A stretch of 64,000 bases of DNA, taken from IMG/VR virus record IMGVR_UViG_3300025141_013863, positions 1-64,000 of that record. One strand, written 5' to 3'. Both the position numbers and the translations under genes were made by a program. This DNA is from a virus. The notes under the pieces were generated by a model. The model saw nothing but the letters and a program-made list of their open reading frames with translations. It ran no database searches and was not told where the DNA came from. Below are positions 25,007-55,877 of this stretch, one piece after another; position 1 is the first letter of the stretch; every line of letters begins with the position of its first letter.

Positions 25007-25008
25007 AT

Positions 25009-25902: not shown

Positions 25903-25923
25903 TAATTTAAAGAGAATAAACTT

Positions 25924-30178: not shown

Positions 30179-30187
30179 GGAGAAAAA

Positions 30188-30403: not shown

Positions 30404-30662
30404 ATATAGGTATATGTGCGAAGAGTGCACGCTGACCTTTACAGTATTACACGGAATCAACGAAGTGTTGGTAAAATGTCAAGAATGTGGCGCTTCGCAA
30501 AGTATGCGAAAGCTTTTGTCAACGCCTATATTGATAAAAGATGATATCGTAATTAAAGAAAACAAAATAGGCGAACTAACGAAAGAATATATTGAAGCAA
30601 ATCGTAAGATTTTAGAAAAGCAAAAAAAAGAAGCAAAAAGTAAAGATTATGAGCCGACTTGA
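30396..30662 (+). CDS. FmdB-type zinc-ribbon protein
   Basis: MPRYRYMCEEC...CQECG; start moved to ATG 30396. Confidence 0.75.
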   Translation: MPRYRYMCEECTLTFTVLHGINEVLVKCQECGASQSMRKLLSTPILIKDDIVIKENKIGELTKEYIEANRKILEKQKKEAKSKDYEPT

Positions 30663-30987
30663 AATAATTTTATCTGCCATATCGACATTATCCTTGATTA
30701 TTAATGTTGGCTTGTTCGTGTACGCGCGTTATGCTATCGTACAGCTAATATCAGTTTCAGAAGAATTAGGAGATTTACAACAAATGGTAGATTCATTTAC
30801 AGAACACTTAAAGTCGATCTCTGAGCTTGAGATGTTTTATGGCGATGAAACAGTTAAAGGATTGTTAGAACACTCTCTTTCTTTTGGTGAACAGTTGACT
30901 ACGTTTGAATATATCTATTCATTAACAGAAGAAGGAACTACTCTAATAGATGACGACACAGAAGAAGCAGACCCGCAAGAAACGTAA
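30649..30987 (+). CDS. hypothetical membrane-anchored protein
   Basis: N-terminal TM helix, acidic tail. Confidence 0.65.
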   Translation: MSRLEIILSAISTLSLIINVGLFVYARYAIVQLISVSEELGDLQQMVDSFTEHLKSISELEMFYGDETVKGLLEHSLSFGEQLTTFEYIYSLTEEGTTLIDDDTEEADPQET

Positions 30988-40500: not shown

Positions 40501-41159
40501 AAATAGACGCATTAGATACCCCAATATCAGAATTTCCTCCCTTTGAAGGAGACAGTAAAACGCTATTGTGTTTGTTAAATTTTCTCAGAGAAGATGTTGA
40601 TTTTAGACTTTTAACTCGTTATATTTTTCCATTAAATAAATTAACTTCTACTCTTGCAATTTATAACGACATGGCGTTTTTGGCCTCTATTGGAGAAGTG
40701 ACTGTTGAAGATGATTCAACTCACGGTGTCGGTGTTGAATATGATCAGAAGCCCGGCATGAAGGCAACCATATCTACGGTGGAAGACGATGATGGGAATG
40801 AGATTGTAGACTCGATTACTGAAGATCCGTCTGCTGGCTGGGCTAGCGTGCTAGATAGAAGCCCTGGCTTGTTTGGTGGTCGAATTGTTAATGAGTGGGA
40901 TAATTGGAACAGAACGCTTCTAACAAGATCAAAGGTAAAACTAAAAAGGATGTTCAGAAGACACTATCGTAATAGATGGCGCCGACCCGGAGATTTTGGG
41001 CTTGATCTCCCCAGCCCAGGCCGAATATTAATGAACAATCTAAGAGAAAATTTAAGACCACCAGCCGGTCGAACCCTCTTGCCATGGTGGAAAAGAAGAA
41101 GAATACGCAGAAATCCGTATGACAAGAATGGAAATATTTGTGAAAAAGATGAGGGCTGA
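34530..41159 (+). CDS. giant (2209 aa) putative virion protein
   Basis: Uninterrupted ORF in baseplate module; EF-hand-like DKNGDGLID, acidic tracts, Arg-rich C-terminus. Confidence 0.7.
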   Translation: MAESKFLKYQDKNGDGLIDVCEDKVDVKEPFYCPPCIPNPYAAIPNWKELDIDEPFFNERVCKYQVAVVTKYTTTMSDESLENSDMTGEEAIEATNERFDEYLEEAVESLLVNNSKDDSDPSKSVIRQTIEYTDFDLDVRPNSRLTLLYSVEQEVLSAIADADDEEDDEEDDEEEGTATTVEFLADEIRPKITKIRKALRLYSKYLKVFRAVEGGNILRVKDNSVFNLENYGDSGRLKKSTLGSILIDLDAFLNSKGYNLAGVGGGFLQEKVTKISFRFTSKYKLKKMKVYTAGCGDIPKIYGKKKLKALNAKSSFKDPTALAYFAQLNEMDSVLQGRESPEWIDVIKEYTYPEVYDTFPSVEQDLRTGSCIAERLKEEGKQIGQDLLDEAFSIGDAILYSFRKNTCIDSIEDLEEEDRQLGLTYNPKATSTPTTIKGMAAEQALKSIEEDDISFNSLCIQFLASYGDSKPGGMSLEDLYKGSLDKIKVCGLFELSLEAIGCLLKGLTLEEAAGRMIKSAIKGMSLENLGDFFLVALPPQKAKEIQDLVQTKIDGGNVFPDKSRSQEISNAIATGATVGEPWTDSGKVQEEKESMVEGNQESMVPSRSSEGVTQSNAGSAPGTLATASAFKALSDSVIIEAYADALIEVYAGDILSPIELLNKYPGAQIIATALAMFDCPEAPEDPPVPSFMKTGEFPFCNTPWAISIPKFENPFQWIPEIKDFTAVIFKILKLQIKQMIVRLIVQMMQKICALISSAACKGLGAIGGAITGEGETNGPGAFRDAIKGAICGDDADDEQVDNTIADLFKSLGLGAAALANQERVDSFMSDLSSSVTNKELMSAFVGDPSSELLQIVDRLIEYEYTEFREGLPNQNSAADFFANVGNLFPADLKDAIRDQLDAPGDEDVLPANPSLCATPEQIEDFCERRQALLAGRATPSQIAQMCENTRDQAKNDLEDLGDLLQGGLPQYLANNMPPLVSDPGCDNGLIPYESEEAVAAASMAAKNELKRLEIAFTVDMLGNGPGESRWGLINMIMSDTMGNPLTAHHRKAYFNPFYVDYFTEEDEDDTDWKDLLAGRFIPVSVQRGAFPAKVAEWLEYQLLGDESVVAATDFRDSLSFSSNNNYIGPQVTTASFEDLGLTHKPLAVQVAAGALTVAGAGIAGAMAAAAGAGELYEKPEIKLYELPDLGYNVGIKVDLENEGMRFIRKGRKADPDTTLVFKDNAKGLRLGDNSKDSAYSYGFDLEMYLSDLENTAPTMYASNLASKTQPVPEKTIHNIYSDNVRISIVEKYNPGAKFESPLNKISFFPIPAVGDDNNEETVISEVKYEFSASDNALDELDLSNYPSFAKSFSGEKEYLPQVVLLKEILNNRGANFSSADIKNAHDEIMTTFLDNFATIIGTDNPAFNYGAEFDQLSETDVEYVLGPGYRDSGISYGEAEIEGEDEDGNKEYRKILNNDMILGMSRMQYQLEEGTYEGSATINRVHYLNPNQFGGTYMNPPVYIEPIKNEGWMGVLDALFPELTHCKNGKKDLVNFGELEDLITDRRPNIPHDERLKSSDPECIEQLPYNRILERDSAASLEGIITAAIRIFIATHVVRSLATFSKFKMDFPDIFSDIYAAYIVESMEEALSGADDDKVERFSLFKDSEFWIAFLEQSVQMYARRIDDGYVSDPPRQALDALANLNDMQGRHLIASKESLKRAKEANTVKRTKTLRNYREEKNFNAVYRTRDDAKKVLKELVSEQLNIMGPRLVDALKSIGVTPEVRDMSHYVFENLVQGAELDLSDEAMVMTSTELPTEGGLEDQYTSGGEFSVYKVNDPDAGYSQGDEYVGYYHTHLDEEDNLNYMAGEVHVDGPHNLLMPFSTKVSLPIGDVANYGASASSDNSQPFLIEKYISIDNVKYSSSDAVDKILANDGNLNISDVYPGTLELIYAPGNIELDFHGTEDEEAATTRAAPTDVVIGIKGNIGVRYGLRLSVVIDGQRATVTTVEIDALDTPISEFPPFEGDSKTLLCLLNFLREDVDFRLLTRYIFPLNKLTSTLAIYNDMAFLASIGEVTVEDDSTHGVGVEYDQKPGMKATISTVEDDDGNEIVDSITEDPSAGWASVLDRSPGLFGGRIVNEWDNWNRTLLTRSKVKLKRMFRRHYRNRWRRPGDFGLDLPSPGRILMNNLRENLRPPAGRTLLPWWKRRRIRRNPYDKNGNICEKDEG

Positions 41160-41565: not shown

Positions 41566-43362
41566 ATGGCCGACAATAGAAAAAAAATGGTACCCATAGA
41601 TTATACTAATAGGGAATTTAATGGGATTAGAGACGATTTAATGGAAATCGTAGAAAGGTTTTATCCCGATAAGTTTCGGGATTGGAGCGAGGGCTCTTTT
41701 GGTTCTTTGATGTTAGATGCGGTTGCATATGTCGGAGATCAGCTTTCGTTTTACTTGGATTACAACGTAAACGAGACCTTTTTAGATACAGCATATCAAT
41801 ATGGCAATATATTAAGACAAGGAAGAGTCCTTGGCTATAAAAGCACAGGAAGGCCCTCTACATATGGAATAGTTGCTATGTTTGTTTTGGTGCCCGCCTC
41901 CCCGACCGCTATAGGTCCAGATACAAGATATATACCGATACTTAAAAGAGGTACTTCTTTTCTATCTCGCGCCGGCCTATCGTATATATTAACGCAAAAT
42001 ATTGATTTTTCTAACGTTACTTATCCTAGAGTGGTAGCAAGAGTAAACGATGATACAGGATCTCCAACACATTATGCCATTAAAGCATATGGGAACGTGG
42101 TCTCGGGCCAATTACAACAAGAAGAAATAGATGTTGGACCTTATGAGAGATTTAAGAGGGTTGCGATTGCTGATCCAAATGTTTCCGAAGTTATTAAAGT
42201 GGTAGATACAGAGGGTAATGAATATTTTGAAGTAGATTATCTATCTCAAGATATGATATATAAGGAAATATCAAATAAAAACTTTTTAAATGATAATGTG
42301 CCCTCTATATTAAAGCCCACTTTGGTATCTAGAAAATTTGTTGTTGAGAGAGGCAGAGAATCTACCATTATACAATTTGGTAGCGGCAAAGAGGGCGAAT
42401 CAAGCGTTGTTGCTTCACCGCAAGAAGTTGCGATAGATTTATTTGGAAAAAATTATACCACTGATGTTACATTTGACCCTACTAGATTGTCTAAAAATGA
42501 GAATTTTGGAATTGTTCCCTCTAATACGACGTTAACGGTGGTGTATAGAAGCACGAATCCTGTAAACTCTAATGCTGGCGCCGGATCTATCAATAAAGTT
42601 ACAAACGCTATAATGTCGTTTTCGGATAGACAAATATTATCAAATGATGAGGTAGTAGCGGTGAGAAACTCAATAGAGGTGTTTAATGAATCTCCAATAA
42701 CTGGTGATGTCACGGCTATAAGTCCCTATGAATTAAAGCAAAGAATTTACGATACATTTCCTACGCAGAATCGAGCAGTAACTCAATCAGACTATGAAAA
42801 CATTGCCTTAAGAATGCCAGCAAAATTTGGCTCGGTATCGCGGGTTAGCGTCCAGAAGGATCCTAGCGCCAAGAAAAGAAATCTAAATATGTACATCGTA
42901 TCGGAAGATTTAGCTGGCAAACTAACACTTACGAACCAGACTATAAAAAATAATTTAAAAGTTTGGTTAAACAATTATAGAATGATAAATGATACTATAG
43001 ATATTTTAGATCCTTATATTATTAATATTGGAATATTCTTTGATATTAAAGCTTCAGCCGGTGCAGAAAAGTTTGACACACTCCAAGAGTGTATAGATGC
43101 TATAACAAAACAATATAGTTCAAAGTTTTTTATTGGAGAATCTTTGTATGTAAGCGATATTTATAAAGCATTGAATGAAGTTCCGGGAGTCCTGGACGTA
43201 ATCAGTGTTAAACTATTAAATAAAATAGGCTCTAATTATTCTGGGAATGTTCTTGATATTAAAAGAAACATGTCGCCAGATGGGGGTCATTTAGTGGCGC
43301 CAAAAAACGCTATATTAGAAATTAAGTTTCCTGAAGTTGACATAAAAGGAAAGGTTAGATAA
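41566..43362 (+). CDS. baseplate wedge protein gp6 / baseplate J-like
   Basis: IDYTNREF, LDAVAYVGDQLSFYLD, ETFLDTA, IQFGSG, QNRAVTQSDY, VPGV. Confidence 0.88.
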   Translation: MADNRKKMVPIDYTNREFNGIRDDLMEIVERFYPDKFRDWSEGSFGSLMLDAVAYVGDQLSFYLDYNVNETFLDTAYQYGNILRQGRVLGYKSTGRPSTYGIVAMFVLVPASPTAIGPDTRYIPILKRGTSFLSRAGLSYILTQNIDFSNVTYPRVVARVNDDTGSPTHYAIKAYGNVVSGQLQQEEIDVGPYERFKRVAIADPNVSEVIKVVDTEGNEYFEVDYLSQDMIYKEISNKNFLNDNVPSILKPTLVSRKFVVERGRESTIIQFGSGKEGESSVVASPQEVAIDLFGKNYTTDVTFDPTRLSKNENFGIVPSNTTLTVVYRSTNPVNSNAGAGSINKVTNAIMSFSDRQILSNDEVVAVRNSIEVFNESPITGDVTAISPYELKQRIYDTFPTQNRAVTQSDYENIALRMPAKFGSVSRVSVQKDPSAKKRNLNMYIVSEDLAGKLTLTNQTIKNNLKVWLNNYRMINDTIDILDPYIINIGIFFDIKASAGAEKFDTLQECIDAITKQYSSKFFIGESLYVSDIYKALNEVPGVLDVISVKLLNKIGSNYSGNVLDIKRNMSPDGGHLVAPKNAILEIKFPEVDIKGKVR

Positions 43363-45035
43363 TGGCCCTAAAGAGATACACAGCGAGCGCTGACACTACG
43401 ATTGCGAACGCATACGAGCCTGGACTTATTACTAGAGCCACCGGCGCAAATATGGGAGCATCTGATGTGTTAGATGTTTTTTCTGTCTATGCAAGACAAT
43501 CAACTAGTTCCGCTGAGCTGTCTCGCGTGTTGGTTAAATTTCCCATAACTGATATATCAACAGACCGAACAAATTCTATAATACCAGCAAGTGGTAGTGT
43601 TAGCTTTTACTTGCACCTTTATAATGCTTCTCATTCGCGAACAGTTCCGAAAGAGGCCAAATATACTTTTATGATGGTTTCTCAATCATGGCAGGAGGGC
43701 GCCGGCTTAGATATGGAAGGCTATACCGACTTGACACTTGGCAATGAGGGGGCCGATTGGATGTCTGCATCTAATAGTGCCTATTGGACAGATGCCTGCA
43801 GTACGTTGTTGGCCGGCGGTTCTTATCATACACAATCTGGCGCGCCAAACGATCAGGTAGATACTGAAATTCACATCTTTGACCAAACTTTGTCCGATGG
43901 AACCGAAGATATAGAAGTTGATATTACGCCATGGGTCGAGCAATGGATCGCGGGCACTTACTCAAATTATGGTGTTGGGGTAATGTTAACAGCTAGCCAG
44001 GAGGCCTCCAGTTCTGTTGATGCTCTAGCCGGCCTCCCAACAGGCAGAGCGGATGACGATGGGCTTATTCAAAACCCAAGCGGTTCTACTACATCATATT
44101 ATATTAAAAGATTTTTTGGTAGAAAAAGTCAATATTTTTTCAAGCGCCCTCACATAGAAGCTCGTTGGGATGATAGTTTAAGAGATGATCGGGGAGACTT
44201 TCATTATAGTAGCTCTTTGGCAGATGGTCCTGATAACTTAAATACCATTTATTTATATAATTATGTTCGTGGTATATTGAAAGATATTCCCGGAATTGAG
44301 AAAACGGGCTCTATCATGGTTAGTTTATTTTCTGGCAACCTTGATGACACTAGACCAACGGGATCAAGTGGACAGCTGCACATTAATAGCTCTTCAAACC
44401 CCGGCAACGAGGGTAAGGTTGGGGGCGTTAAACTTCATGTTACCGGCGGCTGGGTTTCGACTGGAATATATTCAGCCTCGTTAGCCATAACTGCTTCTAA
44501 AACAACAAGCGGATTTGATCCAATATTGACCTTATATGATGTTTGGTCCACAGGCAGTATCGTAGACGCTGATCATCTGCAAACACAATTTCATACTGGA
44601 ACAATTAAGCCGATAATATTAGAATCAGATAATAGAATGCAGAAGCATAGAAATTATTTAAGCATTACTAACCTGCGCAACAGCTATAGAGCCGACGAAA
44701 CAGCTCGGTTCAATTTATTTGTGAGAGAGAAGAATTGGAGCCCCAATATTTACACAAAAGCCAGCTCTAATATTGAGACAAAGACAGTTCACAGTGCATC
44801 CTATAGAGTTTATAGAACTTTAGATGCTAATGATTCGGTTACATATGGTACCGGAAGCGATAAACATACATATTTGTCATATGATGTATCTGGAAATTAT
44901 TTTGATTTCGATATGAGCTTGCTGGAACCTGGATACGAATATTCGTTTAAATTTTCTTTTTATGATAATTCGTTATCAACGTGGGTTGAACAAGAACAGG
45001 CTTTTAAGTTTCGAGTAGAAGATTATGAGTATTAA
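43362..45035 (+). CDS. virion protein with DNRLRE/CBM96-like beta-sandwich
   Basis: DTTI..N.G, SRVLVKF, LHLY, VSQSWQEG, DITPWVEQW..NYG pattern. Confidence 0.55.
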   Translation: MALKRYTASADTTIANAYEPGLITRATGANMGASDVLDVFSVYARQSTSSAELSRVLVKFPITDISTDRTNSIIPASGSVSFYLHLYNASHSRTVPKEAKYTFMMVSQSWQEGAGLDMEGYTDLTLGNEGADWMSASNSAYWTDACSTLLAGGSYHTQSGAPNDQVDTEIHIFDQTLSDGTEDIEVDITPWVEQWIAGTYSNYGVGVMLTASQEASSSVDALAGLPTGRADDDGLIQNPSGSTTSYYIKRFFGRKSQYFFKRPHIEARWDDSLRDDRGDFHYSSSLADGPDNLNTIYLYNYVRGILKDIPGIEKTGSIMVSLFSGNLDDTRPTGSSGQLHINSSSNPGNEGKVGGVKLHVTGGWVSTGIYSASLAITASKTTSGFDPILTLYDVWSTGSIVDADHLQTQFHTGTIKPIILESDNRMQKHRNYLSITNLRNSYRADETARFNLFVREKNWSPNIYTKASSNIETKTVHSASYRVYRTLDANDSVTYGTGSDKHTYLSYDVSGNYFDFDMSLLEPGYEYSFKFSFYDNSLSTWVEQEQAFKFRVEDYEY

Positions 45036-48000
45036 AAAGCTTTTTGATTCGCAAAGATCAAAAAATTATTTATCTGAGACCGACGAAAGAGAGGCTTTCG
45101 CCGATATAGAGTCGTCCAGAAACATGAAGGCGATCTCAAAGAGGCAGAAGACTTTTGTTCCTCAAATAGATTATACAAAGCCTGAAAGATTTGCACGCTA
45201 CGGATCGGCATATCTTTATTATAAATCTGCTATTGAATGGATTCATGATTATTATCCATATGATGGTTCCGATGCAGAAATAAATGAATATAGAAATAAA
45301 CTATTAGATATCGAAAGGTATATATTTGATAATATCTATCCTCGTACAAACGGGTTTGTTACTTTTGCTAATCCTCATGATGGCGGCTGGGGCGGCACCA
45401 CTAATGATCCAGATGATTCTGATGGTTATGGAATTCCATCCACGCTAGAGTACATTACATTTAAAGGAGGGCCCGGCACTGGTTCCGCCGAAGATGGTGC
45501 ATTGTCTTCTCTTGTGCCCAATCCTTATAATGAAAAGATAAAACACGCCAACATATATGATGAAGATATCTACACAAATGCTGGCTTACCAGCAACTTAT
45601 GGATCGGGCTCTAGAGAGTCTAATCTTAAAGCTAATTTTAATACAGGCGTCACAGTTGAGTTTTGGTTAAAAACAGGCTCCGCTATTCCTCTAAGTACAC
45701 TGAATAACGAAACAGAAAAGCAAGTTATCTTTGATATGTGGAACAACAATGCCGACACTACGCATGATTATGGACGCATAACGATTGAGTTAAATGGGAC
45801 AGCTAGCAGCGGATCTCCATTTATAGTCACAGTCCAGTCTGGTAATGCTAACCCTGGAATTTTTCAACAATCAATCGGCGCCGACATAGATGTCGACACC
45901 CTTTCAAAATGGCATCATTATGCTTTTGTAATGGAGAATACTGGCAGCGGCCATGCTATTAAATTCTATGTAGACGGCGATTATAATGATGTACTGGCCC
46001 ATACTGGTTCTTTTGGAGAGTTGCCTCAAAAAGACATGATGGGGCGCCTTGGAGCACTCTTAACGACTCCTTCTGAAACAACCGCCACTGGCTCCCTTGC
46101 CGGCGCCGGAAAACTTTCTGGCTCTATGGATGAATTTCGATATTGGAAAGTCGCTAGAACTGCCAGAGAAATTGGTTTAAACTGGCTCGATCAAATTAGA
46201 GGCGGAGTAAACACAGATATTTCTAATACGACCCTTGGTGTCTATTATAAATTTAATGAGGGTATAACAACTGTAGCGGCCACCGATAGCGTTGTTCTGG
46301 ACTATGGAGGCCGCGTTTGCAATGGTGTTTGGACAGGCTACGGAAGTAATTCCCGCGCCACTGGCTCTGCGATGGTCTTGGCCAGCGGCTCGGCAATTTC
46401 ATCAGAATACAAAGATCCAATTATGTATTCAAACCACCCAGATGTGTCTGCATTAAAAACAGCTTTATTAAATAGTGGCTCCTATCACGATAGACAAAAC
46501 AACTCTTCTATGTTGAGCATGGCGCCTTCTTGGATTATCGAAGAAGACGAAGATCATGGTAGTGAATTTACTACAAATCTTCGATACGTATCTCATATTG
46601 TAGGAACATATTTCGATAAATTATACTTACAAATTCAGTCTCTTCCAAAATTTAAGCAAGCCGGATATACAAGCGCTTCATATACGCCATTTCCCTTTGC
46701 ACAGCATATGCCACAATCAATGGGGCTCGTCTCCCCGGAGCTGTTTATTGATGCATCTGTTATGGAGAAATTTCTCAATAGAAACCAGACCGGATCCTTT
46801 GAGGGCGACTTAGCAGAAACTAAGAATCTAATTTATCTCAATCTTTATAATAATATAACAAATATTTTTAAGAGCAAAGGTACTGAAAAATCAATTAGAA
46901 ATGTATTTAGGTGCTTTAATCTTGATGAGAGCTTGATCCGATTAAACGCATATGCCGATAATACAACATATTTGTTAAGAAACAATACCCTGCAGACTCT
47001 TATAAATAAAAATAGTATTAACTTTAATCAGAAGCAAAATACAAACGCCGTTATTTATCAGAAGCAATATACTGGCTCCGCGTATGAACCGGCCCCAAAT
47101 GATGTAATTGCTGATGATACCATAGGACATATTTCTGGTTCGTGGGGTATCGGCTATAATGCCACCAATGCTCCGGATGATAGGGGTATTGAAGATCCTT
47201 ATGGATTTACAATGGAAGCTGATATTACGTTTCCAACATTCTATAGAACCCAAGATAGATTTGATAGAAATTTTTTAACAGGCTCTTTGTTTGGGCTATA
47301 TACTGTTCCGTCCGGTGCTTCTGGTTATCCTCTTACTAGGATTAAAAACGGTACCGACACTACGTGGATAACAAGCCTTGGAAACAATGCAGCAGGAGAT
47401 TCCGAAAAAGGCCCAGACGCAGCAAACTTTCAAGTTTTTGCAATTAGAGATAGCGAATATTCAAAAAATATTCGGTTTATGATTTCTTCCTCTAATGAGC
47501 CGACCCCGATTCCGCTATTAACAAGTAGCACCTTTTATGATGTCTACTCAGATAGTCGTTGGAACCTTTCCGTTAGAATTGTTCCGTCCCTAACAAGCTC
47601 TTATGGTGCTGCCGGCATTGTTAGCGGCTCCCGAGAATCAGAAAGCAATTATGATCTGATCTTTAATGGCTATCATAATGAAGTTGGTACAATTCAGAAT
47701 AGTTTTAAGTTAACTGCATCGATAGACTATGATACTGCGGTAAACTTTTTAAATGCGGCCAAAAGGGTTTATGCCGGCGCCCGCCGAACAAATATAACTG
47801 GTGCTATTTTAAATCAAACAGATGTTAATATAAACTCTATAAAATATTGGACAAAATATATTGAAGATGGAGTATTAGAACAACACGCGAATGATCTTAC
47901 TAACGCCGGCATATCTGCATCGTACCAAAACACCTCCCCAAGAGATTTAAATAGTTTTGGCCACGATATTTTAAATTTAAATACTTTGGCTCTCCATTGG

Positions 48001-51000
48001 AACTTTGAAAATATAACAGGCTCAGATAGTAATGGTAATTTTTATATTACGGATATGAGTTCAGGCTCATCAGAGATAAGAGATAATTTTGGCTGGGCTG
48101 GCAACTGGGCAGGATATCAACATACTGGATATGGATTTGGGTTTAGTACCTCGTCCACCAACGTTGTTGAAAAAAATGCGATCAACTACTTTAAGTTTAT
48201 AGATCCAGAAAGAGTAGTTTCATCAGATATGGTCCAGATCTTGTCTAGTGATGATCGAGTTTTTGGCACAGATGATGTCGTTCCGGACTATTATTTCACA
48301 GTTGAAAAAAGCATGTATAATGCAATTTCAGAAGAAATTCTTGACTTCTTTGCTGGGGTTGTAGACTTTAATAATATTATTGGCGAGGCCGTTAATAGAT
48401 ATCGCCATAGATATAAATCACTAGAAAAACTCCGAGAGATTTTCTTCAGGAAAGTGTCGAACACCAAGGATGTAGAAAAGTTTGTTGATTATTATAAGTG
48501 GTTTGATGACTCTTTAACAACAATTATATCGCAATTGATCCCGGCATCGGCTGATTTTGAAAACGACATGATGAATATTATTGAAAGCCACGTGCTTGAA
48601 AGAAATAAGTATCAAACTAAATTTCCAACATTCGATTTTAAAGAGCCAGATTTAGATTTTGCCATGAAAGGGGCAAAAGAAAGCTCGTATTCGTGGAAAG
48701 ATGGTAGCTCTACAATTCCGGCTTCTCCTCGTTCTACAAAAAAGAATAGACTATATTGGGATCGACGCGCTGAAAGATCCGCAACAGAGTTATCCTCCAG
48801 TCGCTCAACTAACTCTCCCACGGTTAATTCAACTATTGACGGGCAGAGAGAAAAGTTTAAAACGATTATATATTCTAATCCACATATGAGCCAAAGTACG
48901 CGCCTTTCCTATACTAGCACTGGTACATCATATGATATTGGAGCCCACCGAAGTCGTAGTTATGGAGGCCTCTATAATCTTCAATACGATAGTTATATAG
49001 GTTCCGGCAGTACCATTAAAGGCGGCACGAACTTCACAGATAATAAAAATATTGATTTTACATATAATGCACTTCGTCCTGCAGGTCCAGTTAATAATGA
49101 CGGCACCATATTTGTTCCTCAAAATGTTATTTTGGGATTTGCCAATGACTTGGTTGAACTGCATGAAACTCACCAATGGGAGACTGATAAGTATCCAAGA
49201 ATATTAACTAAAAGATATCTAAAAACTCTCCACGGAAGAAACTTTGAGTACGATGGAACCGGATATAGTAATGTTAAATCTTCCTTCGCATTTCCTTTTA
49301 ATATTGTAAGTTCTTCAATAAAAAGTGGATACAACAAAGTTGTAACCGATAGAGTTACCGGAGGTATTGAAATTGTTAACTTGCATCATGATACTTATGG
49401 AGATTCTTTTGAGATTCCAATGCAGGGCCCATTTACCAATACTCATGTTGGGGGCCACCAATCACGCCACATTGCAATAAATACAGGTTCAGATCAGTGG
49501 TATAACCGTCCGGAAGCATGGAAGATACTTCTTGGAACTAGTGATCTTGGAACACATAATTTAACAGGCGCAATCGGCATGGTGGGCCCAGATTATCCGT
49601 GGCCCGAGGCCAACGAAAGAGGCGGCTCGTCTCCAGGCGCTTGGATCTCACCATACCCAATGACAGCTTCTCACAAGGCTTGGCTGTATAGAGGCATGGT
49701 CGCGAAGAGTCCAGTAAACATTAGGAACATATTAACTACAACTGGATCCAGGGTACTTGGAAATTATCAGAGAAATTACGAAATAGTACAGTCGGTTGGT
49801 GCATATGAAAATGCTAGAGCATTTATTGAAGAACAGCCCACCTTGCCATCTACGGTATACTTGAGCCATTCGGGCAGCACCACAAACGTAAGAACGTTAT
49901 TAGATCTCCGTCGTGAGTCTGGAAGTCATTTCAAGTTTGTAGATGAATATAACGCTGGTTATTTAACGGGTACCGAAAACAAATCAATTATGCTATCTAG
50001 ATTTGCTGCTCCTGGTGGCATAGAAGTGATGGGTCGAGGCTATTTAGATTTTAGAGCTTCAGAATATTCTGTTTATAATTCATTATTGAATAGAAACTTG
50101 ACAGTTATCAAGCCCTCTCAGGGCCCAACTGGTTCGTATTCTGAACTTGTTGGCTCGGGTACTGCGGGAATTCGAGTATTCGATATTCATGGAAAAGATT
50201 TTGGATTGCGCTCACACTTGGCAAGACATAGTGCCAGATTTGGTAGAGATTCCATGTTTGTTACTTCTTCGAATGATATGCCCGGCGCCTCCTATGACCA
50301 GCTTCCATCTTTTCATAAGCTTAATAGAAATCGAAGAGCAGTAATAAAAATAACCAATGCCGGCGACATCTTTAGTCCAAAGACGATAACAACCGCGACG
50401 GCCTCGAAATACGATAACTATTATGTGTCCTACCCCATCCCCAGATCGGACAGACAATATTCGTGGGTTACTGGCTCAATTACTGGCTCAGATATAAGAT
50501 TTTATGGCCATGCCCGAATACATGGCGAGCAAGCAGGTTTGTTTTCTAGTTCTGCTAATGGTTATGTTGCTTATTTTGATTATGTGAGTGCCAGTTCTGT
50601 TGTGCCACAACTTACACAAAGTTTATACCAGCCGACAACAAGATTAAATATTTTAACACACGATCCTTTAACTGCCTCTGGCGACAACAACACGCTTGGA
50701 CATGCAACAACAATTGATTACGATGAGTATTTTAATAAAACAATTGTAGATAGATTCCAGATCGAAAACTTCCTTACGACATCCGCGAATTACTTTAACT
50801 TGCTGATGACAAGGCGTGGTGGTACTTTTGGTTGGAACTGGAAGAGGTTAAGGATTCAAGATCACCCAATCTTAGTTGATCAATATTTAAGTAGTACTTT
50901 TACGCGTGCCGCCATTACTGATGATGATGTCACAACGTATAGTCTCCCACCTGTGTCCATGAGAGGCCGTCCTCTCCTTATTAATTATAGCCAGGATGAT

Positions 51001-54000
51001 TCAGATACAACACTCAAAATTACTCACAACAATGAAAAGATTTATTTTAACAGCACGACTTTAAATGATGAGCTAGGCTTGCCTAATATGGAAACTGTTA
51101 CTGCGTATGATCAAGTTTTATCGATTATACAGTCGGCCGATTATTCATTAAATTGGATTATGTATTGCGAAAATGTTTTCCCATCTTTAAGAAACGAATT
51201 TGTTTCCTCGTCTCGCGAAAGAATTGGTTTTGATAATAAATTTTGGAGAGATGCATCAATAGATCGCTTGGCGGTTGGAAATGCTTTGAAAAATTCCTTT
51301 GGTGTAAGGTCTCCCGCTGTTTCACAAAGTTGTTGGCCCTTAGACGCGCCGGCTAATTTCTTGACGCGCTCAAAAGTGCCAAATGTTGGAACTGGCGGCG
51401 GCGATCATGATTTCTTTGAAGAGGGTCAAGCAGGAGAGCTTCAAAATACTTATTTTGCATATCACACAGGCGCCGCCAAGACCAGCGATGAAGTGTTTAC
51501 TTTCATGGCCCCCGCCGCCCTTTACGCCAGAAAACACACTCTTAGTTCACCATTTTCGGTGGCATCTCCATCAGGAATGGATATTCCAGAAACAGGAAGT
51601 ATTTCAATTGGAGTTCCATTTTGGAAAGGCAGCTCGCAGATTGATATTTATGCAGGCGAAGCAGTATGGGAAGCCGGCTCACAAGCTGGAATTGTTACAG
51701 TTTCTGGTTCTACCTCAATTTTTCAAGCGACCGCTTCTATTCCCTGGTTCAACGATTATGATGATTATAAAGAAGACTTATTATTGTTGGCTCGCGACTA
51801 CTCCATTATTCCAGAATTTAGGATTAGTGAACATATCGAAGATTACATAAAGTATGGCTTGGCATCAAAAAATAAATCAAACACTTTCGAGATTCCAGGG
51901 ACATCAATCAACAGCTCGACAAGTTCTTTTTATGTAGATTATTCTAATTCTGAGTTTATGACAGAATTTCTCAACATTAAGCAAGATTCATTGCTTGATG
52001 CAACAGAAATTAGATTAGTATGTAGCGCTGCAATTAGATTTAATCCGTATAAAGGGTTTTATCCCGCACAAAGAACTTTAGATCTAGTCTCACAGTTTTC
52101 TCGTTCTTATGGCGATGGATTGTTTGCGTCCAAGAAGGGCGACGGTACACAATTTTCAGTCGCCGGCGAAGAGCTTATCAAGAACAGGCCGGGCTTATTG
52201 AGGCCTTTGATGACGACACTATATTCTCCAGGTATTTTATTCAACAGTATTAAATCTGGACTGGCAGTTAATTATCCAGGAATAACTGATACTAGAAAAT
52301 TAAGTGCATCATATTATGGTAAATCAAAATTAGAAAATACAGAAAATTGGATGATCACGCCGGCCCTCCCTCCCAATAGTACAAAAGTTGGATATCGCGG
52401 CGGAGAGTTCTGGGACATTAAAGTTCCTTTCGAGGCCATCTTAGCCCCAGAAAAATATATTGCAGGGATACAATTTTTGGATATAGAGCCCCACCCCTCT
52501 TGTTCTCTGAATGCAACTGCTTCTTTGGGAGCGGCAAGTGATGAAATTTATTCTATGATGGCCAGTAATTTTCTCGGAGAAGTTGGGTCTTTCTTCTTGA
52601 AAGATAATATGTTTACACAGCTTGCCTCTGAGCCAGTTACAGATGATCTAAGATTTACATCCGGTAGCGTTTATGGGGCTAGAATAAAGTTAAGAAGATC
52701 TGTGTCGGGCTCTAGAGGTTATCTTCTAGAATCTGGCTCTGTTGGAGGAAGCGATCCATATGATCTAACAGGTGGTAGAATTTATGATTCAACTTTGGGG
52801 GCATATCAAAACGGTGCCTTTCCAATACCACAAGATCCAAGAGCAACTAACAAATCTTTTCAAGAAAGTTTTACAATGTATTCTCGCCCCTCCGCCTTCG
52901 GTCCTCCCGTTGCCGGCCAACCGGATTCAACAGGATCGAAAGACTCAGTTGTCTTAGCTTCAGATCCATTAGATAGTGTAAATGGGTATTATTGGTCATT
53001 CACCCCTCCATATTACAATGGTGAAGCTTGGTGCGATGTAATTTTTAGACCGGATAGTACGAAAAGCTATGATTTAGAACAAATATTAGCTGAGGCCTCT
53101 TTGGTATATTGGCGAGCTGATCCTGGGATTGGCACAGGTAGTGCTGGCTATTTGGGCTCTAATCCTGTTTTAATCTCCTCTTTTGGTTCTGCCTCATTTA
53201 CAAATGCTGATAATTATATTTATTCTGGACACAATGTTAATGCAAACGCTATGCAAATCAGCGCCAGCATTAATTTGCTTGGTGTTGAAAGGGTCTTGCA
53301 GCAAGAAGAAGATAAGTTTGGAAACAAGATCAAAGGCACAAATATTACCGCAGCAAAACGTTGGGTAATTCAGCCAAAATGGGAAACCCCAATGCTCAAT
53401 TTTGGTAATCAAGGGGTGCACCCAATAACCGAAAATGATGGTAACTTAACATTGCCTGATTATGGAAAAGCATCAGTGCCAAGAGGGATGTGGCATCAAT
53501 TTGGTATAATGCCAGAATCGCCAGATAAAGGAATTTTCTTAGAAATTGGAGATATTCCAAAGGATTGGTTAAAAAATCATTACGATGTATTAACAAACGA
53601 TACCGTTTATAATAATGATGATGCTGATACCGGCGACAAGGTATTTAAAGAAATGCAATCTTTAACAGATCTGGCAGGCTTTAAATCATCAACGTCAAAG
53701 CGCTTAGGAGAAATAGCAGAAAGTAAAATTATCAGGGAAGCAGTTGTGGCGGTTCCTTATGTAATACAGAATGAAGCAGGCATATCTAACGAGGCTAGCG
53801 CACTTACATCGACCATGAAGTCTCTTATAAGCATTCCAAAACAGAGATATGAAGCTGCCATGTCTAGTGCTAAGGGAACGGCGGAAGGTGATTCATTAGA
53901 TGCCGCTGGAGAGTCAATAAGAAAGCTAGTTCAAAAAATGGAAAGGTACGTTTTGCCACCTCAGTTTGACTTCCTAACTAATCCAGATGTTGATCCGGTT

Positions 54001-54441
54001 GTTATGTATATTTTTGAATTTAAGTATATTTTAGATCAAAATGATCTATCGTATATATGGCAGAATTTAGCGCCAAGAGATTATAAAAAAATATCCTTTC
54101 AATATGAATCAGTTGCACATGAGCTTATGGACACTGAATTGCTGACGGAGGCAAACTTAGTAGATAATGAAAACTTAAGATGGATGGTCTTTAAAGTAAA
54201 ACAGCGTTCCGGCACTCACTATTATGATCTAACGACTGCTCAAGCAGGCCAAGCCTCAAAAGATGTATTTAGCTTTGATGATGATACTTCTGGATACAAG
54301 CTTGGATTCAATTGGCCTTATGATTATTTATCTTTTGTTGAGCTAATTAAGATGGATGCGGAAGTTCTTTTTAAATCATCTGACGATACAGATACCACAA
54401 ATGGCTCAACTGATGTATATGGCGAACTGGAGAGCGAATAA
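45025..54441 (+). CDS. giant (3138 aa) baseplate protein: gp7/gpI-like core plus LamG domains
   Basis: LamG motifs TVEFWLK, WHHYAFV, FYVDG, MDEFRYW; gp7/gpI-like NIFKSKGTEKSIRNVFRCF. Confidence 0.7.
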   Translation: MSIKKLFDSQRSKNYLSETDEREAFADIESSRNMKAISKRQKTFVPQIDYTKPERFARYGSAYLYYKSAIEWIHDYYPYDGSDAEINEYRNKLLDIERYIFDNIYPRTNGFVTFANPHDGGWGGTTNDPDDSDGYGIPSTLEYITFKGGPGTGSAEDGALSSLVPNPYNEKIKHANIYDEDIYTNAGLPATYGSGSRESNLKANFNTGVTVEFWLKTGSAIPLSTLNNETEKQVIFDMWNNNADTTHDYGRITIELNGTASSGSPFIVTVQSGNANPGIFQQSIGADIDVDTLSKWHHYAFVMENTGSGHAIKFYVDGDYNDVLAHTGSFGELPQKDMMGRLGALLTTPSETTATGSLAGAGKLSGSMDEFRYWKVARTAREIGLNWLDQIRGGVNTDISNTTLGVYYKFNEGITTVAATDSVVLDYGGRVCNGVWTGYGSNSRATGSAMVLASGSAISSEYKDPIMYSNHPDVSALKTALLNSGSYHDRQNNSSMLSMAPSWIIEEDEDHGSEFTTNLRYVSHIVGTYFDKLYLQIQSLPKFKQAGYTSASYTPFPFAQHMPQSMGLVSPELFIDASVMEKFLNRNQTGSFEGDLAETKNLIYLNLYNNITNIFKSKGTEKSIRNVFRCFNLDESLIRLNAYADNTTYLLRNNTLQTLINKNSINFNQKQNTNAVIYQKQYTGSAYEPAPNDVIADDTIGHISGSWGIGYNATNAPDDRGIEDPYGFTMEADITFPTFYRTQDRFDRNFLTGSLFGLYTVPSGASGYPLTRIKNGTDTTWITSLGNNAAGDSEKGPDAANFQVFAIRDSEYSKNIRFMISSSNEPTPIPLLTSSTFYDVYSDSRWNLSVRIVPSLTSSYGAAGIVSGSRESESNYDLIFNGYHNEVGTIQNSFKLTASIDYDTAVNFLNAAKRVYAGARRTNITGAILNQTDVNINSIKYWTKYIEDGVLEQHANDLTNAGISASYQNTSPRDLNSFGHDILNLNTLALHWNFENITGSDSNGNFYITDMSSGSSEIRDNFGWAGNWAGYQHTGYGFGFSTSSTNVVEKNAINYFKFIDPERVVSSDMVQILSSDDRVFGTDDVVPDYYFTVEKSMYNAISEEILDFFAGVVDFNNIIGEAVNRYRHRYKSLEKLREIFFRKVSNTKDVEKFVDYYKWFDDSLTTIISQLIPASADFENDMMNIIESHVLERNKYQTKFPTFDFKEPDLDFAMKGAKESSYSWKDGSSTIPASPRSTKKNRLYWDRRAERSATELSSSRSTNSPTVNSTIDGQREKFKTIIYSNPHMSQSTRLSYTSTGTSYDIGAHRSRSYGGLYNLQYDSYIGSGSTIKGGTNFTDNKNIDFTYNALRPAGPVNNDGTIFVPQNVILGFANDLVELHETHQWETDKYPRILTKRYLKTLHGRNFEYDGTGYSNVKSSFAFPFNIVSSSIKSGYNKVVTDRVTGGIEIVNLHHDTYGDSFEIPMQGPFTNTHVGGHQSRHIAINTGSDQWYNRPEAWKILLGTSDLGTHNLTGAIGMVGPDYPWPEANERGGSSPGAWISPYPMTASHKAWLYRGMVAKSPVNIRNILTTTGSRVLGNYQRNYEIVQSVGAYENARAFIEEQPTLPSTVYLSHSGSTTNVRTLLDLRRESGSHFKFVDEYNAGYLTGTENKSIMLSRFAAPGGIEVMGRGYLDFRASEYSVYNSLLNRNLTVIKPSQGPTGSYSELVGSGTAGIRVFDIHGKDFGLRSHLARHSARFGRDSMFVTSSNDMPGASYDQLPSFHKLNRNRRAVIKITNAGDIFSPKTITTATASKYDNYYVSYPIPRSDRQYSWVTGSITGSDIRFYGHARIHGEQAGLFSSSANGYVAYFDYVSASSVVPQLTQSLYQPTTRLNILTHDPLTASGDNNTLGHATTIDYDEYFNKTIVDRFQIENFLTTSANYFNLLMTRRGGTFGWNWKRLRIQDHPILVDQYLSSTFTRAAITDDDVTTYSLPPVSMRGRPLLINYSQDDSDTTLKITHNNEKIYFNSTTLNDELGLPNMETVTAYDQVLSIIQSADYSLNWIMYCENVFPSLRNEFVSSSRERIGFDNKFWRDASIDRLAVGNALKNSFGVRSPAVSQSCWPLDAPANFLTRSKVPNVGTGGGDHDFFEEGQAGELQNTYFAYHTGAAKTSDEVFTFMAPAALYARKHTLSSPFSVASPSGMDIPETGSISIGVPFWKGSSQIDIYAGEAVWEAGSQAGIVTVSGSTSIFQATASIPWFNDYDDYKEDLLLLARDYSIIPEFRISEHIEDYIKYGLASKNKSNTFEIPGTSINSSTSSFYVDYSNSEFMTEFLNIKQDSLLDATEIRLVCSAAIRFNPYKGFYPAQRTLDLVSQFSRSYGDGLFASKKGDGTQFSVAGEELIKNRPGLLRPLMTTLYSPGILFNSIKSGLAVNYPGITDTRKLSASYYGKSKLENTENWMITPALPPNSTKVGYRGGEFWDIKVPFEAILAPEKYIAGIQFLDIEPHPSCSLNATASLGAASDEIYSMMASNFLGEVGSFFLKDNMFTQLASEPVTDDLRFTSGSVYGARIKLRRSVSGSRGYLLESGSVGGSDPYDLTGGRIYDSTLGAYQNGAFPIPQDPRATNKSFQESFTMYSRPSAFGPPVAGQPDSTGSKDSVVLASDPLDSVNGYYWSFTPPYYNGEAWCDVIFRPDSTKSYDLEQILAEASLVYWRADPGIGTGSAGYLGSNPVLISSFGSASFTNADNYIYSGHNVNANAMQISASINLLGVERVLQQEEDKFGNKIKGTNITAAKRWVIQPKWETPMLNFGNQGVHPITENDGNLTLPDYGKASVPRGMWHQFGIMPESPDKGIFLEIGDIPKDWLKNHYDVLTNDTVYNNDDADTGDKVFKEMQSLTDLAGFKSSTSKRLGEIAESKIIREAVVAVPYVIQNEAGISNEASALTSTMKSLISIPKQRYEAAMSSAKGTAEGDSLDAAGESIRKLVQKMERYVLPPQFDFLTNPDVDPVVMYIFEFKYILDQNDLSYIWQNLAPRDYKKISFQYESVAHELMDTELLTEANLVDNENLRWMVFKVKQRSGTHYYDLTTAQAGQASKDVFSFDDDTSGYKLGFNWPYDYLSFVELIKMDAEVLFKSSDDTDTTNGSTDVYGELESE

Positions 54442-55877
54442 TGGCTAAATTTTTAAATAAAAAAGAGCAAGTTTATGATTTAAAGCTTACCTCGTATGGC
54501 CACTATTTGATGTCGGTTGGTAAATTCAAGCCAGCATACTATAAATTTTTTGATGACAATATTCTATATGATGGTCGTTATGCTATGTATACCGGCTCAA
54601 GTGCCCCAGAGAAATCTAGTGTCGATTTAATGTTATATGAAAGTCAAAATCAAGTTCACAAAAGAATAAAAGAAGAGACTCAGTATTTAGAAAGCTTAGT
54701 CTTATTTGAAGATGTCGAAAATAACATAGGAAAACTATCTGATGACAATTTTGAAACAGACGTTACAGCGACCATGGTCGAGCCAAGGTTGGATGTGTTC
54801 AGGATTGATGAAGGCATAGGAGACGCATTTTTAGATGCCGGCACTCAAGCTGCCCCTGCTTGGAAAATAGTTGCTTTAAATGGAGAAATTTCCTCTTCCG
54901 CAACAAGTGATCCAGCAAATAATTCAAAAATCCCTCAAATAAATATCTCTTTAAATTATGAGAAAAAGTTGCTATCTGATATTGAACCCTTGATCGCCCC
55001 CGATTCCGTACCTGAAATGGCAGCTAGAACCGCAAAATTTTCAGACAATTACCAAATCGAACTAGTGTATGATGATGGTCTAATTTATGCTGAAGAAATG
55101 AACACCTTATTATTAACTGATAATTTTGATATTGAAGTTTTCGAACAACAAACGGAAGATGCGGAAAATGCTGCAGCACAATTTTCCTTTAATGCATCTG
55201 GGCCCGGAATCCGAGATGAAACGTTTACAATAAACGATGGTACAACATCGGCGACGTTTACTTTCAAAGAGACAGCTGCCTCTTCTACACAAATAAAAGA
55301 CGGTGCTCCACCCAGCACCGCTGCGGTTACATTAGCAGAACGAGCCGTTAGAATAATAAACAATTATGTTGCACAGTCTAGCGTCGATCTTAAAGTTAGT
55401 GCCGCGTCTGATGAAACCACAGGAGTGATAACGATAACCAACACTAATGGCACCGGTAAAAAAACAAATTCCGAAGGCACTACGGCTAGAATAACATCTT
55501 CAGATGAAGACAAGATTGCAACTGATGGTGGATTTTTTACTGGCGGCACGGATGTAAAGACAAGCCTTATAAAGAAATTTTTTAAGCAAGGGGTACCTCA
55601 AGTAGTAGATGGTTTTATGGTTTCACCACAGCCAATAGAAACCCCACTAGAAGAGCTTCATACAGGTAGCGTAGAATATTACTTCAGCATTGTTGCGGAT
55701 CAAGAAGTCGATCCAAAGCTAGCATGCCGTGCCACAGAACTTTTTAATAAAGAATCATATTATATTGATTTAGATTACGATTGCAGTCAATATACATCTT
55801 TAACTGAAGATGTATCGCCCAAATATTTTGATATTTATGGGCCAGTAACGGAGCCAGAGATATGCCAAGAGCCATAG
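54441..55877 (+). CDS. putative virion structural protein (tail-collar-fibre-like N-terminus)
   Basis: DLKLTSYG...GKFK...FFDDNILY, paralogous to 63192 N-terminus. Confidence 0.6.
   Translation: MAKFLNKKEQVYDLKLTSYGHYLMSVGKFKPAYYKFFDDNILYDGRYAMYTGSSAPEKSSVDLMLYESQNQVHKRIKEETQYLESLVLFEDVENNIGKLSDDNFETDVTATMVEPRLDVFRIDEGIGDAFLDAGTQAAPAWKIVALNGEISSSATSDPANNSKIPQINISLNYEKKLLSDIEPLIAPDSVPEMAARTAKFSDNYQIELVYDDGLIYAEEMNTLLLTDNFDIEVFEQQTEDAENAAAQFSFNASGPGIRDETFTINDGTTSATFTFKETAASSTQIKDGAPPSTAAVTLAERAVRIINNYVAQSSVDLKVSAASDETTGVITITNTNGTGKKTNSEGTTARITSSDEDKIATDGGFFTGGTDVKTSLIKKFFKQGVPQVVDGFMVSPQPIETPLEELHTGSVEYYFSIVADQEVDPKLACRATELFNKESYYIDLDYDCSQYTSLTEDVSPKYFDIYGPVTEPEICQEP

Follow-up and report, generated by a model that had tools for sequence, protein, structure and literature searches.

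A three-residue motif, [ST]-[G>A>S]-S, is strongly over-represented in the giant 3138-residue baseplate/tail protein of this phage (5–7-fold) and in four to five unrelated tail proteins (3–10-fold), its third position being restricted to Ser. As a possible site of sugar attachment the motif is a good candidate, and the lineage carries a conserved tandem pair of family-4 glycosyltransferases, GT4a and GT4b, that could prime such a modification. The features concerned are collected in Table 1, where the window is the whole stretch of 64,000 nucleotides that was analysed.

Table 1. Features of the contig with their positions in the window, or in the contig where so indicated; counts are observed vs expected.
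Feature	Position	Strand	Remarks
GT4a, family-4 (GT-B) glycosyltransferase	6854..8143	+	EX7E; core gene of the lineage
GT4b, second, distantly paralogous GT4	8119..9399	+	EX7E; in tandem with GT4a
Hypervariable island of soluble nucleotide-sugar/glycosyltransferase genes	9399..30950	+	
2209-aa protein, internal negative control	34530..41159	+	1 vs 1.4; generalised motif 7 vs 4.0
Baseplate wedge (gp6/J-like) protein	41566..43362	+	not enriched (1 vs 0.4); marks the module as baseplate
557-aa protein	43362..45035	+	chain of beta-sandwich domains; 6 [ST]GS, 16 [ST][GAS]S
Giant baseplate/tail protein, 3138 aa	45025..54441	+	follows the wedge gene; 33 [ST]GS, 56 [ST][GAS]S
478-aa tail-module protein	54441..55877	+	marginal, 2 vs 0.4; generalised motif 4 vs 1.4
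384-aa protein	contig 64205-65359, beyond the window		[ST]GS 7 vs 1.1
442-aa protein	contig 65362-66690, beyond the window		[ST]GS 3 vs 0.8; generalised motif 10 vs 2.3
165-aa protein	contig 87362-87859, beyond the window		[ST]GS 3 vs 0.5

Enrichment in the giant protein and distribution in the contig

The 33 [ST]GS sites of the giant protein compare with 4.4 ± 2.0 in 500 residue shuffles (z = 14.2), and they also exceed the first-order (dipeptide) expectation of 11.6, with z of about 4–5 per tripeptide. Rare tripeptides aside, TGS and SGS top the list of those over-represented in this protein, where Ser or Thr precedes 33 of the 49 GS dipeptides and Ser follows 33 of the 58 [ST]G. The preliminary description, which had counted about 18 TGS and 15 SGS by hand against a rough expectation of 4–5, proved exact in its counts and close in its expectation, and the enrichment is real and larger than it first noted. 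It survives the comparison with permuted tripeptides, since [ST]SG, G[ST]S, GS[ST] and S[ST]G reach only 1.1–1.5-fold family-wide.

The sites are scattered singly along the protein at spacings that lack periodicity, and BLAST detected no internal repeats in the motif-rich proteins, in keeping with the original view that they are not linker repeats. They fall into 29 distinct 9-mers and draw their Ser codons from both families; this variation, already read as a sign of selection on the protein, places the action of the motif at the protein level. The other reading frames of the same ORF hold one or two matches only. An artefactual origin in composition, linkers of low complexity, cryptic repeats or a methylation- or restriction-related word in the DNA could draw on the richness of the motif proteins in Ser, Thr and Gly, as well as on a 10-fold over-representation of GGCGCC in the window. 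We regard it as extremely improbable, given that both the residue-shuffle and the dipeptide expectations are far exceeded and that the permuted tripeptides, the irregular and repeat-free spacing, the diversity of 9-mers and codons and the nearly empty alternative frames all speak against it.

Beyond the giant protein, the 557-aa protein carries the six TGS/SGS initially estimated, versus 1.1 in shuffles (z = 4.9), and its homologues contain 7–10 [ST]GS each where about one is expected. The estimate of roughly one site in the 2209-aa neighbour was likewise borne out. A recurrence suggested for further downstream proteins held only in part, the ORF at 54441 being marginal and those at 55862, 60479 and 63192 not significant for [ST]GS. 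No [ST]GS enrichment was found in the portal, the terminase or the enzymes, nor in the S/T-rich 828-aa and 890-aa tail proteins of this contig, whose proteins outside the motif-rich set give an observed/expected ratio (O/E) of 0.74. In the complete relative G012 the MCP is unenriched (1 vs 0.7) and the sheath reaches only about 3-fold for [ST]GS. The proposed restriction to surface-exposed structural proteins therefore applies to a tail/baseplate subset but was drawn too broadly, as the G012 MCP and the 828-aa and 890-aa proteins illustrate.

Paralogy among the motif-rich proteins was rejected, for BLAST all-versus-all related only the C-terminal domains of the 384-aa and 442-aa proteins. The only matches from fold searches were generic jelly rolls and beta-sandwiches, none of them a phage tail structure; LamG/pentraxin-type jelly rolls occupy the N-terminus of the giant protein. 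Avoidance of the motif by non-target proteins was likewise not seen (O/E 0.74 and 1.41), a result that counts against an acceptor sequon.

Motif grammar, conservation and structural setting

Family-wide, O/E amounts to 5.3 for [ST]GS, 3.8 for [ST]AS, 2.3 for [ST]SS and 1.6 for [ST]GT, while Asn, Asp, Pro, Glu, Lys, Leu or Val in the middle give values at or below 1, and Ala, Asn or Gly at position 1 are depleted. The same grammar is seen across the separate protein sets, in which a middle Ala is favoured 2.5–3.9-fold and a middle Asn or Asp does not exceed 1-fold; NGS lies at 0–1.0-fold and DGS at 0.5–1.2-fold, Flavobacterium phage immuto (4.4-fold) excepted.

More than 100 homologues, with identities down to 30%, keep the motif. 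Its Ser and Thr residues are better conserved than other Ser and Thr (0.69 vs 0.50; for Ser at position 3, 0.63 vs 0.41; p ~1e-5), whereas its Gly falls below other Gly in conservation (0.53 vs 0.65), and this opposite behaviour argues against a plain glycine turn. The flanks of the sites show lower conservation and lie close to indels. In two AlphaFold2 (AF2) models the sites sit at beta-strand ends and hairpins, and 75–77% of the motif residues are coil, against a background of 52–56%, so that the loop placement anticipated for the motif is largely confirmed. A Gly beta-turn or ST-turn fits poorly, the middle Gly not being the conserved element and exchange for Asn or Asp not being accepted. 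The beta-turn consensus of the folds, raised from the outset as a competing explanation, is contradicted by the Gly conservation and by the lack of enrichment in the analogues of T4, S-H9-2 and Atu_ph07.

The [ST]GS excess stems from retained positions and not from a higher birth rate of new sites, and a search for compensatory turnover or a stabilised number of sites was negative, the variance ratio of 1.2–2.2 equalling that of controls. Both results weigh against a sequon. They would suit a structural habit of the lineage, namely an inherited Ser/Thr-capped loop of small residues at strand ends, with the glycosyltransferase pair and the island serving another target. The host envelope or another acceptor could be that target. 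Position-conserved sites, counts that show no compensation and the location at strand ends and hairpins agree with such a habit, which we nevertheless consider unlikely, though it deserves serious attention. It does not readily explain why Gly is the least conserved residue and is swapped for Ala or Ser instead of Asn or Asp as in positive-phi turns, why position 3 rejects Thr, or why Ser/Thr at position 1 is not exchanged for Asn or Asp (Asp in immuto excepted). Moreover, jelly rolls, beta-sandwich chains and other unrelated folds bear the motif, and it is absent from the S/T-rich 828-, 890- and 2209-aa neighbour tail proteins of the same phage and from the T4, S-H9-2 and Atu_ph07 analogues.

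The glycosyltransferase pair, its island and other phages

The two GT4 candidates pointed out at 6854 and 8140 (the latter in the ORF that starts at 8119) are both GT4 enzymes with an intact E-X7-E motif, which reads EGFGLATLE in GT4a and EGFGLPLFE in GT4b in the alignment. Pfam Glycos_transf_1 scores 44.7 bits for GT4a (cut-off 26.4) and 28.2 bits for GT4b, and GT4a additionally matches Glyco_trans_1_4 and GT4-conflict. A tandem Glycos_transf_1 pair was present in 20 of the 22 long contigs with the giant protein, including all four complete genomes. Enzymes of the GT4 family act on many types of acceptor. The nearest solved relatives of the pair in the PDB are small-molecule or unknown-acceptor enzymes, and the pair adjoins PhoH and a nuclease, outside the tail operon; all three facts count against an action on tail proteins. 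DNA glycosylation of the T4 type appears unlikely as a target, four complete relatives being devoid of a thymidylate-synthase-like hydroxymethylase.

The variable island beside the pair spans 15–22 kb and lies directly upstream of the tail module, with the GT4 pair on its conserved flank; these phages devote 8–15% of a ~195-kb genome to such an island. It encodes glycosyltransferases of the GT2, GT11 and Glyco_trans_1_2 (GT1-like) types and a weak, sub-threshold GT-D-like match, together with epimerases/dehydratases, aminotransferases, a B12-radical SAM enzyme, a ThDP enzyme, methyltransferases, a kinase and a sulfotransferase. No multi-pass membrane protein was found in the island, nor any visible flippase, polymerase or polyprenyl-phosphate transferase. 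Most island genes, the sulfotransferase included, have no homologue in G012 in this two-genome comparison.

Three-position specificity and conserved hydroxyls would suit any enzyme or partner that reads Ser/Thr. Phosphorylation, O-acetylation, sulfation or an assembly chaperone might hence lie behind the motif, or the sites could be carbohydrate-binding loops, the GT4 pair being irrelevant in each case. The sulfotransferase and methyltransferases of the island and the lectin-type domains of the giant protein are compatible with this, but we judge it improbable. Even G012 is without counterparts of the sulfotransferase and of most tailoring enzymes, whereas the GT4 pair stands on the conserved flank in that comparison and likewise occurs in the further long relatives that were searched; the ORFs scanned with Pfam gave no protein-kinase match.

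More than 900 homologues of the giant protein occur in metagenomes, defining an abundant ocean myovirus family, and tblastn found no direct homologue in cultured phages. The motif grammar recurs, however, in three cultured phages, Flavobacterium phage immuto, Microcystis phage Mel-JY01 and Rhodothermus phage RM378, within tail-module proteins that have no detectable homology to the giant one. Each of these phages has a second gene, of ~425–470 aa, behind its GT4a orthologue; orthologues of GT4a were identified in all three and in LR756508, and those of GT4b in immuto and Mel-JY01. Conversely, the T4 baseplate and fibres (8 vs 12.7 expected) and the 4449-aa protein of Atu_ph07 (3 vs 3.6) show no enrichment, and the 3536-aa protein of cyanophage S-H9-2 (10 vs 5.5) lacks the grammar; none of these phages has the GT4a orthologue pair. 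Their counts rule out a generic trait of myovirus baseplate and fibre proteins. phiPsal1 and Mae-JY09 encode distant GT4s of a capsid-adjacent type, ~23% identical to GT4a, and display no and only weak motif enrichment, respectively.

The association between motif and enzymes expected by the preliminary description was thus found in immuto, Mel-JY01 and RM378 but not throughout. In LR756508, where GT4a is the only member of the pair with an orthologue, enrichment after the wedge gene is weak, which counts against a sequon and agrees with the structural habit described above. Among the phages with a homologue, none clearly without the pair turned up; the co-occurrence therefore cannot be separated from phylogeny, another point in favour of that habit. 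The co-occurrence is clade-level, and the positive lineages may all belong to a single deep clade, whose two traits could be ancestral and unrelated.

A candidate acceptor sequon compared with known systems

The suggestion of an O-glycosylation sequon near a glycosyltransferase cluster keeps its support from the motif, the protein subset, the loops, the conserved hydroxyls, the recurrence in the three cultured phages, the GT4 enzymes and an island free of multi-pass membrane proteins, and most of the refuting outcomes named for it did not occur. The missing turnover compensation and LR756508 go against it, and the acceptor role stays that of a candidate. We give about an even chance to the motif being an acceptor sequon for cytoplasmic O-glycosylation, primed by GT4a/GT4b, of a particular set of distal tail and baseplate proteins. 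The tandem pair would add the first sugar or sugars to a motif hydroxyl displayed in exposed loops at beta-strand ends, most likely that of the invariant Ser at position 3. Soluble island enzymes could then extend the primer into a strain-specific glycan, leaving the tail periphery of the virion coated with sugar. Somewhat more tentatively, an [ST]-[G/A]-S sequon read by the pair, which primes a strain-variable tail coat, might be common to the ocean family and the Flavobacterium, Microcystis and Rhodothermus phages.

Mycobacteriophage virions are O-glycosylated by phage-encoded glycosyltransferases, with glycans at the C-termini of capsid and tail-tube proteins and the enzyme genes adjoining the capsid gene, according to the summary of Freeman et al. 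2023 in PMC12619734. As there, soluble phage-encoded enzymes, which the phage studied here does possess, would decorate virion proteins within the cell and leave a glycan coat on the particle. Unlike there, the candidate sites, of three residues each, are dispersed over baseplate and tail-periphery proteins and are not placed in C-terminal extensions of MCP or tail tube; the enzymes are a conserved GT4 pair beside a variable island. The capsid-adjacent arrangement is instead that of phiPsal1 and Mae-JY09.

GtfA/GtfB is a cytoplasmic GT-B (GT4-type) pair, the O-GlcNAc transferase of streptococcal and staphylococcal serine-rich-repeat adhesins, with a strong preference for Ser where the context is of the S-x-S type and the middle residue is small; GtfB is the non-catalytic partner, and further glycosyltransferases extend the primer. 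The phage likewise has a tandem GT-B (GT4-type) pair, but both members retain EX7E, and its sites are single and dispersed in folded domains, not gathered in long Ser-rich repeats. A PDB sequence search with both GT4s (E <= 0.01) returned no chain named GtfA or GtfB, 6n1x being listed as 'Glycosyltransferase'.

Large marine T4-like phages carry glycan ('LPS/cell-wall') clusters of nucleotide-sugar and glycosyltransferase genes whose target is not known. Our ocean myovirus shares such a large gene set; it differs in the candidate acceptor motif and target proteins tied to a conserved enzyme pair, S-H9-2 being without the motif. The D-[ST]-[AILVMT] sequon of general O-glycosylation in Bacteroidota and the N-x-[ST] sequon act outside the cytoplasm with lipid-linked glycans. 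They share the three-residue logic, and cultured relatives of the phage infect Bacteroidota, but the island is devoid of machinery to export lipid-linked glycans. Both known sequons were unenriched in the motif-rich proteins (z of −0.6 to 1.7 for D[ST][AILVMT]). Literature searches on Mel-JY01 and on RM378 glycosylation returned nothing.

These data point to the giant baseplate protein, along with four to five tail proteins, as candidate targets, to the motif as a candidate acceptor and to a conserved enzyme pair as the candidate for priming. Since the cultured phages immuto, Mel-JY01 and RM378 share the motif grammar and a GT4a orthologue, the proposed acceptor role is directly testable. If that role is true, phage virion O-glycosylation would gain its first short sequon, together with a first example among the tail and baseplate proteins of cyanobacterial phages and of phages infecting Gram-negative bacteria. 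It would then bear on host recognition, on how sticky the particles are and how well they survive in seawater, and on the O-antigen-like diversification of the island.

Distribution of the [ST]GS tripeptide

The preliminary description had put the 3138-aa protein at about 18 TGS and 15 SGS, counts that proved exact. These 33 [ST]GS tripeptides compare with 4.4±2.0 after residue shuffling (z=14), and TGS and SGS rank at the top among tripeptides without rare residues, about three-fold above their dipeptide-based expectations (6.2 and 5.4). Spacing between the sites is uneven and their contexts vary, in keeping with the dispersal described before, and no internal repeats were found in this protein; the reported codon variety also held, with 29 distinct 9-mers and Ser encoded by both TCN and AGY. 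The excess in the 557-aa protein (6 versus 1.1 expected) and the low content of the 2209-aa protein (1 versus 1.4) were likewise recovered, whereas recurrence in further named proteins was marginal for the one at 54441 and was not borne out for the others. Beyond the window, three proteins are clearly enriched. Pooled over the tail block, 59 [ST]GS were counted against 11.4 expected, in comparison with 7 versus 9.5 in all other proteins of the contig. The probability that this enrichment is an artefact is negligible.

When the enriched proteins were compared between this contig and the complete relative genome G012, a common syntenic set emerged, consisting of the 3138-aa (giant) protein, its upstream neighbour and two proteins of ~370-440 aa encoded before the primase gene. 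Each genome has in addition one enriched short protein, of 165 aa on the contig and 222 aa in G012, with no BLAST homology between them. Enrichment is weaker in the G012 sheath, a protein with large insertions, and in several neck or fibre-like proteins of that genome; none was observed in the G012 major capsid protein, in portal, terminase, wedge and 2209-aa proteins, or in two tail proteins rich in S/T (828 and 890 aa). Paralogy among the enriched proteins is limited to one shared C-terminal domain, and their folds differ, the giant protein containing LamG/pentraxin-type jelly rolls in its N-terminal part and the 557-aa protein being a chain of beta-sandwich domains (model pLDDT 81).

The viral contig (90,332 bp, ~37% G+C), whose first 64 kb make up the window, holds nearly all its genes on the + strand, with terminase, portal and primase genes beyond the window, and represents about half a genome as judged from complete relatives of 187-195 kb, one of which has direct terminal repeats. 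Among cultured phages, Flavobacterium phage vB_FspM_immuto and Microcystis phage Mel-JY01 are nearest to it (44-47% identity in TerL, ~30% in the wedge protein). Since a large protein is encoded downstream of the wedge gene, either immediately or with one or two smaller genes in between, in immuto, Mel-JY01, T4 and Atu_ph07, the giant protein is best read from its gene position as a baseplate or tail-periphery protein. Some other features were observed in the contig. The M23-peptidase tail lysin shares its N-terminal ~74 residues, at 69% identity, with the beginning of a short ORF located downstream, perhaps the remnant of a second lysin cassette. A 914-aa ORF of the head-gene region, flanked by conserved neighbours, has no G012 homologue, PHROG hit or motif enrichment and may have arisen by insertion or gene replacement. 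GGCGCC, a palindrome, is present 55 times in the window, whereas dinucleotide-preserving shuffles give 5.4±2.3; the genome has 37% G+C, and the excess bears no relation to [ST]GS codons.

Coordinates of the features discussed (contig positions unless a locus is named)
Feature	Position	Remark
GT4a	6854-8143	family-4 glycosyltransferase
GT4b	8119-9399	family-4 glycosyltransferase
Glycan island	9399-30950
B12-radical SAM gene run	20616-27111	within island
Right flank of island	30950-31651	homologue in G012
M23-peptidase tail lysin	31938-33164
Short ORF with lysin N-terminus	33082-33429
2209-aa protein	34530-41159
Baseplate wedge protein	41566-43362	gp6/J-type
557-aa protein	43362-45035	enriched
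3138-aa (giant) protein	45025-54441	enriched
Enriched protein	64205-65359	beyond window
Enriched protein	65362-66690	beyond window
Conserved head-region neighbour	83321-83929	beyond window
914-aa ORF	83904-86648	L002:5904-8648 (contig part beyond window)
Conserved head-region neighbour	86645-87070	beyond window
Enriched protein	87362-87859	beyond window
GGCGCC, examples	1423; 2826; 33099-33351
RM378 nuclease-GT region	L104 8212-11893
Mae-JY09 GT genes	L107 9787-10971	after major capsid gene
phiPsal1 GT genes	L108 6979-9351	after major capsid gene

Motif grammar, structure and conservation

The grammar of the motif was derived from an alignment of 74 full-length homologues of the giant protein, out of more than 975 in marine metagenomes. 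Observed/expected ratios were 5.3 for [ST]GS, 3.8 for [ST]AS, 2.3 for [ST]SS, 2.0 for [ST]GA and 1.6 for [ST]GT; permutations and forms with N, D, P, E, K, L or V in the middle gave 0.4-1.5, and AGS, NGS and GGS were depleted. Single alignment columns are occupied by TGS, SGS, TAS, TSS, SAS and SGT, which together with these ratios defines the motif as hydroxyl - small - Ser. Every giant-protein homologue examined, down to 30% identity, is enriched, and the 557-aa protein family still more so (7-10 sites versus ~1 expected). Sequons known from Bacteroidota O-glycosylation and from N-glycosylation showed no enrichment in the motif-rich proteins.

In two AF2 models, 75-77% of motif residues lie in coil, versus a background of 52-56%, and sites typically stand directly before or after a beta strand. 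It is possible, if rather doubtful, that [ST]-[G/A]-S is simply a lineage-specific structural loop habit. Position-1 Ser/Thr is kept as Ser/Thr in 69% of homologues versus 50% for other Ser/Thr, and position-3 Ser as Ser in 63% versus 41% for other Ser (p ~1e-5 in both cases), while the motif Gly, at 53%, is less conserved than other Gly (65%); the flanks are below average in conservation, with many indels in columns close to the sites. A turn that needs glycine for its conformation would predict the opposite conservation pattern, and also replacement of Gly by Asn or Asp, whereas Ala or Ser takes its place here.

The GT4 pair and the glycan island

GT4a and GT4b are distant paralogues, both with an intact EX7E motif. 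Tandem GT4 (Glycos_transf_1) matches were detected in 20 of the 22 long contigs encoding the giant protein, including all four complete genomes; the other two were a 43%-complete fragment without a match and a contig with a single sub-threshold hit at its end. The pair belongs to the conserved left flank (gene order PhoH, nuclease, GT4a, GT4b) of the hypervariable island, whose remaining ~20 kb are almost wholly different in G012; island homologues there comprise the flanks (on the left also a cytidylyltransferase) and a few internal genes.

The island encodes GT2, GT11 and other glycosyltransferases, epimerases/dehydratases, aminotransferases and methyltransferases, as well as a B12-radical SAM enzyme, a ThDP enzyme, a sulfotransferase and a kinase. 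One gene run (B12-radical SAM, PanB-like, ThDP enzyme, methyltransferase, aminotransferase) is suggestive of a branched-chain sugar pathway. No multi-pass membrane protein was found in the island; that the glycan would be made by soluble enzymes, with neither a lipid carrier nor export, suggests that its acceptor is cytoplasmic. The tail module starts directly after the island. A thymidylate-synthase-type hydroxymethylase is absent from four complete relatives, which argues against DNA glycosylation of the T4 type.

Occurrence in other phages and candidate role of the motif

GT4a orthologues were found in immuto, Mel-JY01, RM378 and the uncultured phage LR756508, and GT4b orthologues in the first two; RM378 has a 425-aa gene at the equivalent tandem position. 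In this thermophilic Rhodothermus phage an exonuclease-like gene annotated 'similar to DNA polymerase I' is followed by the GT4a orthologue and the 425-aa gene, an order that matches nuclease-GT4a-GT4b of the window and indicates an ancient arrangement.

[ST]GS counts in structural proteins of other phages
Phage and proteins	Observed	Expected
immuto tail module	62	14.6
Mel-JY01 tail module	49	7.5
RM378 cluster, 64.8-76 kb	21	3.3
LR756508 (GT4a only), three post-wedge proteins	5	1.4
S-H9-2 3536-aa structural protein	10	5.5
T4 baseplate and fibres	8	12.7
Atu_ph07 4449-aa protein after wedge	3	3.6

The result for LR756508 is ambiguous. The full grammar is present in each of immuto, Mel-JY01 and RM378, with G (4.6-7.6x) and A (2.5-3.3x) but not N/D (at most 1) favoured in the middle, S and T each at 4-8x in position 1, and Ser only in position 3 (Thr 0.7-1.1x). 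As no similarity was detected between their tail proteins and the giant protein, this common grammar was not inherited site by site.

Virion O-glycosylation is established in mycobacteriophages, where, according to Freeman et al. (2023, as summarised in PMC12619734), capsid and tail tube subunits carry glycans at their C-termini. The system proposed here would differ from it in target proteins, in its dispersed short motif and in enzymes. Two unrelated siphoviruses, Mae-JY09 and phiPsal1, resemble the mycobacteriophages in having GT genes directly after the major capsid gene, and [ST]GS enrichment in the structural proteins of these distant phages is slight or absent. GtfA/GtfB of serine-rich-repeat adhesins form a cytoplasmic GT-B pair with a preference for Ser and a small middle residue. 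The proposed phage system would be closest to them in its working, sharing these features. The GT4 pair is no member of that family, since both proteins look catalytic and PDB sequence searches at E <= 0.01 gave no chain named GtfA/GtfB.

We give an even chance to [ST]-[G/A]-S being a glycosylation motif. This reading is made less certain by the possibility that all positive lineages belong to a single deep clade, and by the facts that no clade member clearly lacks GTs, that the excess stems from retained positions rather than a higher site birth rate, that site number shows no compensation, and that avoidance of the motif is not seen in other phage proteins. That the motif is read instead by another modification or a binding partner appears improbable. 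Overall, the findings are consistent with [ST]-[G/A]-S being recognised by a trans-acting factor conserved across the positive lineages. The obvious candidate for this factor would be the conserved GT4 pair, which sits at the fixed edge of a variable glycan island that is without export functions and adjoins the tail genes.
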